Below are positions 25,012 to 25,362 of a stretch of 25,686 nt of DNA, piece by piece. This stretch comes from Anaerolineae bacterium. Lineage in GTDB: Bacteria > Chloroflexota > Anaerolineae > Aggregatilineales > UBA3940. Position 1 is the first letter of the stretch. Each line of letters starts with the position of its first letter. The stretch covers positions 1 through 25,686 of the forward strand of contig JADZAD010000093.1 in the NCBI GenBank assembly GCA_020852775.1, given 5' to 3'. The translations under genes were made by a program, and so were the position numbers. The notes under the pieces are model-generated. The model was not told where the DNA came from. It did no database searches and saw only the letters and a list, made by a program, of their open reading frames with translations.

Positions 25012-25039
25012 TTGTCATCTCATGAAACTCGGCTATACT
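25012..25039 (+). promoter_or_regulatory. sigma70 promoter for the aroH leader
   Basis: TTGTCA (25012-25017), 16 nt, TATACT (25034-25039). Each hexamer matches consensus at 5 of 6 positions. Confidence 0.65.
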
Positions 25040-25096
25040 GTTAGCAACCTCTGTCACGGTAGATTGCCCGGACGGAGCCTACAGGTTTACTGACGC

Positions 25097-25228
25097 ATGG
25101 TTTCTGTACTATCCTCACCATTCAGCCCGTTCATTTCCCGCCGCTCTGGCCACCAGAGCGCGACGGGCGTCTTTTATTTCGACTTCTATTATTACTTTAG
25201 CAGCTTGCAGAAGCGGGCCTGGCTCTAA
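25097..25228 (+). CDS. Phe/Tyr-rich attenuator leader peptide (43 aa): MVSVLSSPFSPFISRRSGHQSATGVFYFDFYYYFSSLQKRAWL
   Basis: ATG 25097 to TAA 25226-25228. Codons 26-34 (25172-25198) read TTT TAT TTC GAC TTC TAT TAT TAC TTT, i.e. 4 Phe and 4 Tyr. It sits between a promoter and a terminator upstream of chorismate mutase. Confidence 0.8.
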   Translation: MVSVLSSPFSPFISRRSGHQSATGVFYFDFYYYFSSLQKRAWL

Positions 25229-25274
25229 CTGCCTGGAGGTCGGAGAAGCGACCTCGTCCTGAAATGGGAAACAC

Positions 25275-25304
25275 GGCGCGGAGCGAAAGCCCCGCGCCCT
25301 TTTT
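25275..25304 (+). terminator. Attenuator terminator upstream of aroH
   Basis: GGCGCGGAGC-GAAA-GCCCCGCGCC (10 bp, one mismatch, GNRA loop), then CTTTTTGTT, about 60 nt before the aroH start. Confidence 0.85.
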
Positions 25305-25362
25305 GTTATCCGGTGCCGTTTGCGAAGGCAGCGCCACCATCCAGTGGGTTTAAGGAGTTGCT

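Follow-up and report, generated by a model that had tools for sequence, protein, structure and literature searches.

The window, that is, the whole stretch of DNA analysed here, is the entire contig C93 (25,686 bp) of an Anaerolineae bacterium. It belongs to a metagenome-assembled genome of 2.13 Mb, 65% complete and consisting of 321 contigs. Close to its end, the window carries the first part of aroH, a chorismate mutase gene, preceded by a promoter-like site, a short open reading frame (ORF) dense in phenylalanine (Phe, F) and tyrosine (Tyr, Y) codons, and an intrinsic terminator. This region was considered as a candidate leader-peptide attenuator, as proposed in an earlier note made from the DNA letters of the window. 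The host had been presumed there to belong to the Chloroflexota, and this was right: in a protein search, the closest aroH proteins carried the labels Anaerolineae or Ardenticatenaceae.

The leader region of aroH

The features of the region, all on the forward strand, are as follows.

25012-25039 (+): sigma-70-like promoter, TTGTCA (25012-25017), 16-nucleotide (nt) spacer and TATACT (25034-25039), 10 of 12 matches
25097-25228 (+): predicted leader peptide ORF, ATG at 25097 to TAA at 25226-25228, 43 amino acids (aa), MVSVLSS...GVFYFDFYYYFSSLQKRAWL
25172-25198 (+): control codons, TTT TAT TTC GAC TTC TAT TAT TAC TTT, encoding FYFDFYYYF (4 Phe, 4 Tyr, no Trp)
25213-25221 (+): element 1, a weak version of a GGAGC conserved in relatives; its GGGC (25215-25218) can form a hairpin with GCUC (25222-25225)
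25222-25233 (+): element 2, putative antiterminator strand GCUCUAACUGCC, spanning the leader stop codon; its partner is the 5' arm of the terminator, 25275-25284
25236-25255 (+): spacer hairpin GAGGUCG-GAGAAG-CGACCUC, -11.6 kcal/mol, lying inside the antiterminator loop and forming in both states
25275-25304 (+): intrinsic terminator, GGCGCGGAGC, loop GAAA and GCCCCGCGCC (25275-25298), then C and UUUUU (25300-25304)
25352-25686 (+): aroH, with AAGGAG at 25352-25357 and ATG at 25363; the first 108 codons, then the contig end

The promoter-like site is the sole one in 24700-25686, where 0.3 would be expected, and transcription is predicted to start at about 25046. The sequence from 25040 to 25365 folds at z = -3.4 relative to shuffles. 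The earlier note had named this promoter, the 43-aa ORF with eight aromatic codons in nine, the hairpin GAGGTCG/CGACCTC (25236-25255), the GC terminator with its U-tract and the AroH chorismate mutase behind it. All of these were recovered where it had placed them.

The aromatic run is exceptional in its genome. Among 3.4 million stop-free 9-residue stretches, taken from all six frames of the whole assembly, exactly one contains eight Phe or Tyr residues, and it is the run at 25172-25198. Seven of nine are reached in three stretches genome-wide, two of which overlap this run and the third of which lies on contig C120. The genome has a GC content of 62%, and Phe and Tyr together account for 5.8% of the codons in its long ORFs; TTT provides 23% of the Phe codons there and TAT 34% of the Tyr codons. 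The leader thus places a cluster of codons for the pathway's own amino acids ahead of the structural gene.

The terminator hairpin has a folding energy of -18.0 kcal/mol with one A.C mismatch, and it separates the leader from the structural gene, as expected of an attenuator. A consensus terminator scan of 24700-25686 returned no terminator, probably because of this mismatch; the hairpin is clear by folding and by alignment. The gene at 25363 matches PF07736 (CM_1) with an E value of 2.9e-34 and 118.4 bits against a cut-off of 27. Its product also matches solved structures, namely the Thermus thermophilus chorismate mutase 1ODE (E 9.5e-26) and Bacillus subtilis AroH, 1COM/2CHT (E 1.7e-19). With the curated cut-off well exceeded, the gene is assigned to the AroH-class (type I) chorismate mutases. 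About 15-25 C-terminal residues are lost at the contig end. The ORF track of the window may have missed aroH because the contig end cuts it after codon 108.

Upstream of the promoter, the neighbouring gene at 23689-24888 (-) is transcribed divergently and encodes a class-V aminotransferase/kynureninase-like protein (PF00266 and PF22580, the kynureninase C-terminal domain). It is possibly a tryptophan-catabolic enzyme located beside an aromatic biosynthesis operon.

Conservation in the order and in the phylum

Two samples of relatives were used. At the order level, 40 relatives were searched for aroH. The gene is present in 28, which represent 8 families of the window's order; together with the window they make up alignment A1 of 29 loci. 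The phylum-level sample comprised 150 genomes, 74 of them with aroH, from which 40 loci of 22 further families were taken. Codons of the aromatic runs were counted in 42 homologous leaders.

Small ORFs dense in Phe and Tyr (and Trp, W), which the earlier note had suggested looking for in relatives, were found about 120-260 nt upstream of aroH in all 28 order-level loci, one of them judged by eye. Examples of the runs are FYYYFYFWF, YYFYFYF and FFFYFYYFYF. With the window included, a short ORF predicted to be translated precedes aroH in 29/29 loci, and in the window it lies between the promoter-like site and the gene. The length of the peptide (15-60 aa) and its non-aromatic residues vary freely; only the aromatic residues are kept. 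A Shine-Dalgarno-like tetramer precedes the candidate start in 22/29 leaders, and a sigma-70-like site of the type TTGAC(A)-17/18-TATGCT occurs upstream of the leader in 13/29 loci.

The runs contain TTT 86 times, TAT 81, TAC 60, TTC 32 and TGG 14 times. Their variation consists of synonymous T/C changes at codon position 3 and T/A changes at position 2, the latter swapping Phe and Tyr. Cytosine occurs 164 times at position 3 and only 12 and 38 times at positions 1 and 2, respectively; the constraint on the run therefore acts on its codons, not on a U/A-rich RNA motif.

All 28 relatives' loci have a strong hairpin followed by a U-tract, and in most of them the hairpin is nearly identical, GGCGCGGAGC, loop and GCUCCGCGCC. 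The terminator is the RNAalifold consensus of the 29 loci, with compensatory changes in 8 of 10 pairs and with 93% of alignment cells paired in its arms. Between the aromatic run and the terminator, alignment A1 reveals a further conserved block, GGAGCaUGGCUCUnnCCGCUGG. This block falls within the leader ORF in some loci and past the stop codon in others and is therefore conserved as RNA.

The second part of the block, element 2 (GCUCU..CGCU), is complementary to the 5' arm of the terminator. Standard pairs are formed in 79% of cells, compared with 34-56% in slid controls, in which the partner was shifted by 1-3 columns. The window's own strand 25222-25233 aligns exactly with element 2, and it is on this alignment with the conserved family element that the identification of the window's own antiterminator is based. 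As the earlier note had written it, GCUCU (25222-25226) pairs with GGAGC (25280-25284) and UGCC (25230-25233) with GGCG (25275-25278), giving a duplex of 9 pairs with a 3x1 internal loop and an energy of -13.3 kcal/mol. Depending on the assumed start of the free RNA, the antiterminator fold of the window is the minimum or lies within 0.7-1.6 kcal/mol of it. Folding under ribosome placement, also proposed in the note, was carried out on nascent transcripts that stop short of the terminator 3' arm, a ribosome occupying the last aromatic codon. Element 2 was the minimum-energy partner, binding at least 5 of 10 bases of the 5' arm, in 22/29 folds. On average, 7.5 of the 10 bases of the 5' arm were paired upstream in this state, but 4.0 once the ribosome was moved to the stop codon.

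Element 2 begins 15-30 nt past the last aromatic codon, in most loci 20-24 nt and in the window 23 nt. The stop codon is more variable in position: relative to the start of element 2, it can lie as much as 15 nt upstream or 30 nt downstream. The proposal that the antiterminator strand spans the leader stop holds for the window's own sequence, but not as a conserved feature; it is the distance between run and strand that is conserved instead.

Lineages with differing terminators were found to carry matching strands. In L140/L141, from another family, leader CUGCGUGCCCA lies opposite arm UGGGCACGCAG, and in L132 leader CGGAUCGC lies opposite arm GCGAUCCG. In L006 and L019, the arm has U in place of C, and an A faces this U. 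In the phylum-level loci L132, L140 and L141, the antiterminator strand begins 4-8 nt past the last aromatic codon, a gap that measures 20-24 nt in the order to which the window belongs; the switch therefore has two or more architectures within the phylum.

The first part of the block, element 1, forms standard pairs with element 2 in 69% of cells, compared with 29-47% in slid controls, and pairs with the terminator 3' arm equally well (71% of cells). In the window, the element 1 hairpin amounts to only -3.0 kcal/mol. Element 1 may act as an anti-antiterminator; the data fit its pairing with element 2 and with the 3' arm alike. The spacer between element 2 and the terminator, 27-52 nt long, contains a hairpin of differing sequence in most relatives. 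Such a hairpin would likely shorten the effective loop of the helix between element 2 and the 5' arm.

In the phylum-level sample, an F/Y leader was found in 13/40 loci, including lineages matching Herpetosiphonaceae and Roseiflexaceae records. Many of the loci without it have aroH within an operon, directly after aroQ or trpA. A search with the exact terminator pattern returned 90 stretches across many phyla, and the 80 listed were checked for upstream F/Y runs. A run of at least 5/9 was present in 8 of these 80. Seven of the eight are of Chloroflexota type (Herpetosiphonaceae, Roseiflexaceae, Anaerolineae, OLB15 and one Pleurocapsa-labelled contig); the eighth, L040 (Terricaulis), is marginal at 5/9. 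The terminator pattern is thus widespread in unrelated bacteria, and the terminator sequence alone is therefore not diagnostic.

Two side observations came from the same search. On a 3.9-kb contig with the label 'uncultured Pleurocapsa sp.', a cyanobacterial name (L083:1-160), the leader MREVMRQYISSFGYFYYYFSG... is nearly identical to the leaders of L022 and of Chloroflexi bacterium OLB15 (L105); the contig is probably mis-binned and of Chloroflexota origin. The pattern GGCGCGGAGC-N3-6-GCTCCGCGCCTTTT recurs in at least 11 genomes of Hyphomonadaceae, Terricaulis and Maricaulis (Alphaproteobacteria: L040, L043, L059, L070, L072, L078, L085, L095, L099, L107 and L108) with no dense upstream F/Y run, L040 reaching at most the marginal value given above. 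These recurrences may represent a conserved terminator or attenuator of another operon.

The aro operon and a second leader in the same genome

In the relatives, aroH heads an operon of about ten genes: aroH, the gene for 3-deoxy-D-arabino-heptulosonate 7-phosphate (DAHP) synthase, (tyrA), aroA, aroE, tyrS, aroC, aroK, aroB and aroQ. Pfam matches in L031 comprise aroH, DAHP synthase with a ferredoxin-like regulatory domain, prephenate dehydrogenase, 5-enolpyruvylshikimate 3-phosphate synthase and tyrosyl-tRNA synthetase, followed by chorismate synthase, shikimate kinase, dehydroquinate synthase and type II dehydroquinase. The genome under study has most of these genes on contig C228, which starts with the last 51 codons of a DAHP synthase gene and continues with aroA, aroE, tyrS, aroC, aroK and aroB. 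A near-identical full-length aroH, sought by protein search to recover the operon of the species, was not found, the best match having 68% identity. The earlier note, which had advised looking at the genes behind aroH, had described the attenuator as controlling an AroH chorismate mutase. The gene is indeed directly downstream, but the regulated unit is very probably the long aro operon and not aroH alone.

Between tyrS and aroC, contig C228 has an insert of 1.5 kb with a 499-aa ORF without a Pfam match (L170:2357-3856 (-)); it was not seen in the relatives examined.

A second, full-length DAHP synthase gene, also with the ferredoxin-like regulatory domain, is located on contig C9, 85 nt after trpA (L171:3301-4948 (+)). 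The lack of Trp codons in the leader would be explained by this position of the second DAHP synthase behind trpA.

Metatranscriptome contigs identical to the window were obtained from two wastewater runs. They cover 25171-25491 and 25256-25501 and join the leader, the terminator and aroH; neither run gave a contig on the divergent upstream gene. These contigs lend weak support to co-transcription and read-through and are silent on regulation.

The same genome has a comparable arrangement ahead of its histidine genes. On contig C247 (C247:7698-7874, equal to L169:2499-2675 (-)), a promoter TTGACA-17-TATACT is followed by a His leader, a GC hairpin with a U-tract (L169:2499-2531), hisG and hisD, both genes being Pfam-confirmed. 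The leader has 23 codons with five consecutive His, MTHMTARAHHHHHVSLTLIPGGG (L169:2566-2637). The -10 box ends about 9 nt before the ATG, and the His leader mRNA may be nearly leaderless. The Rfam search did not recognise this leader. As judged from its sequence, the C247 element is a textbook attenuator, and its presence indicates that the organism uses leader-peptide attenuation more widely.

Proposed switch, alternatives and known systems

The element upstream of aroH is, in all likelihood, a classical ribosome-mediated leader-peptide attenuator sensing charged tRNA-Phe and tRNA-Tyr. The mixed Phe/Tyr attenuator of the earlier note is thus borne out by the comparative evidence. Transcription would begin at about 25046, and a ribosome would translate the 43-codon leader while RNA polymerase transcribes the downstream region. 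When Phe-tRNA or Tyr-tRNA is scarce, the ribosome would stall in the run 25172-25198; its footprint would end some 10-12 nt past the stalled codon, which would leave element 2 free. The free strand (25222-25233) could then pair with the 5' arm (25275-25284) as the arm emerges, so that no terminator would form and the polymerase would go on to transcribe aroH together with the other genes of the aro operon. With both charged tRNAs in ample supply, the ribosome would reach the stop codon at 25226-25228 inside element 2 and cover the strand. The 5' arm would then pair with the 3' arm, and transcription would end at the U-tract, 25300-25304. Leader translation, the ribosome footprints, the kinetic competition of the folds and the response to Phe and Tyr are the steps that we infer. 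A mutually exclusive, ribosome-dependent antiterminator is found at the level of the family, in pairing, spacing and matching strands; the window's own duplex is not above shuffles.

Several observations weigh against this reading. The ribosome-binding signal of the window's own leader is weak (CAGG, 10 nt upstream). About 1 kb between C93 and C228 is unassembled, and the continuity of the operon in this genome is presumed from the relatives. The metatranscriptome contigs have a depth of about 2, and the libraries may contain DNA. The remaining points concern the antiterminator. The window's own duplex scores level with shuffled upstream sequence (relative score 0.52 vs 0.52), and the 5' arm has an equally stable alternative partner in CG.GCC (25214-25219). 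When arms were swapped among 40 leaders, a leader fitted its own arm at 0.57 and a swapped one at 0.50, the own arm being better in 28/40; the leaders of kin are non-independent, and the support is modest. In about 8 relatives (L020/21, L025-28, L030 and L157), no clear antiterminator was found by simple methods. The level score, the two partners nearly equal in energy and these relatives would suit a leader and terminator working without a dedicated antiterminator, for instance through physical coupling or uncoupling of ribosome and polymerase, or a switch by way of the hairpin of elements 1 and 2 or another fold. Such an arrangement is nevertheless improbable: element 2 is conserved at the RNA level with a fixed spacing to the control codons, its pairing with the 5' arm is far above the slid controls, and lineages with different terminators carry matching strands.

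It is less probable still that the U/A-rich run and the conserved block form an RNA bound by a protein or ligand (a riboswitch, a T-box or a target of the kind recognised by the trp RNA-binding attenuation protein), with the ORF being incidental. The terminator sequence is unusually conserved across the order, and T-boxes are known in Chloroflexi (PMC3766115), both of which would agree with a binding RNA. Against it, a cmscan of 24800-25686 with all 4227 Rfam 15 families at E <= 1 gave only a noise hit to vertebrate telomerase RNA, so that neither the T-box (RF00230) nor Phe_leader (RF01859) nor other amino-acid leaders matched. Furthermore, the base composition of the run tracks codon positions, the frame is open from the start codon through the run in every locus, and only the aromatic residues are conserved. 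The slightest chance is left to an ORF standing by accident beside an ordinary terminator, or to a small F/Y-rich protein acting in its own right. The occurrence of the exact terminator sequence in 90 stretches of unrelated bacteria speaks for an ordinary terminator, yet among the 80 of them listed the F/Y run is confined to eight, seven of Chloroflexota type and one marginal. The terminator is not that of the gene at 23689-24888, because that gene lies on the opposite strand. The arrangement is kept in 29/29 loci, and the length of the peptide and its flanking residues vary freely, which is at odds with a protein of independent function.

With the attenuator preferred, a broader interpretation is put forward with evenly balanced confidence. 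A single mixed Phe/Tyr leader, belonging to an old, uncatalogued RNA family of the Chloroflexota, would govern the entire shikimate pathway together with chorismate mutase, tyrA and tyrS. The trp operon would keep the second DAHP synthase, and elements 1 and 2 would imitate the competing terminator stem. In aromatic synthesis, a Phe/Tyr sensor would then precede one DAHP synthase gene together with tyrS and the genes of the common pathway, and the other DAHP synthase would belong to the trp operon. For annotators, the attenuator is a missing regulatory feature, of which both the leader and the RNA are outside Rfam.

A RegPrecise survey of cis-regulatory RNAs (PMC3766115) suggested that leader-peptide attenuation is gamma-proteobacterial in origin with few transfers. 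Five Chloroflexi genomes were among those surveyed, and only families already in Rfam were treated. The literature search, outside of which many subscription journals lay, found no paper on leader-peptide attenuation in Chloroflexota. The present element would extend a mode of regulation treated as mainly proteobacterial to a little-studied and mostly uncultured phylum. The Phe/Tyr and His attenuators imply a working coupling of transcription and translation in Chloroflexota, which, if true, would be tight enough for classical attenuation.

The closest functional counterpart is the AroR leader of Corynebacterium glutamicum, which contains Phe-Tyr-Phe and lies upstream of the aroF operon. As summarised in PMC11802643, it was characterised experimentally by Neshat et al. 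2014; ribosome stalling raises transcription under Phe limitation, and only Phe limitation was effective. Both systems place a mixed Phe/Tyr ribosome-mediated attenuator before a common-pathway operon with DAHP synthase, the likeness being functional only. The C. glutamicum leader has a short Phe-Tyr-Phe, whereas eight aromatic codons in nine are found here. That bacterium belongs to another phylum, and the first gene of its operon is aroF; here the first gene is aroH, and the operon, of which tyrS is a member, is much longer. In principle, therefore, mixed Phe/Tyr leaders of aromatic operons are not new. The earlier note had named no experimentally characterised case of such a sensor; for the Chloroflexota, none was found in the literature searched, but in general AroR is a precedent.

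The pheL-pheA (RF01859) and pheM-pheST systems of Escherichia coli share with the present element the leader ORF, the aromatic codon run, the terminator and the competing helix. Their targets are also related, since pheA encodes a chorismate mutase fusion and pheST a tRNA synthetase placed under such a leader, which recalls tyrS here. The chorismate mutase of E. coli pheA is AroQ-class and not AroH-class. The pheL and pheM leaders contain Phe codons only and belong to gamma-proteobacteria, where 53 pheL genes have been recorded (PMC3082878), whereas Phe and Tyr codons are combined here.

As in E. coli trpL, a layout of four elements (element 1, element 2, 5' arm and 3' arm) is possible, and the decision would likewise depend on whether the ribosome is stalled at the control codons or reaches the stop. 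Unlike in trpL, elements 1 and 2 mimic the upper part of the terminator stem, the hairpin between them has only 4-5 bp, and the control codons lie 13-24 nt upstream of the elements instead of inside element 1. Mechanistically, the element corresponds to the trpL, pheL and hisL attenuators of E. coli. Thus, the switch is real, conserved and uncatalogued, yet it follows a textbook mechanism and is not of a new kind.

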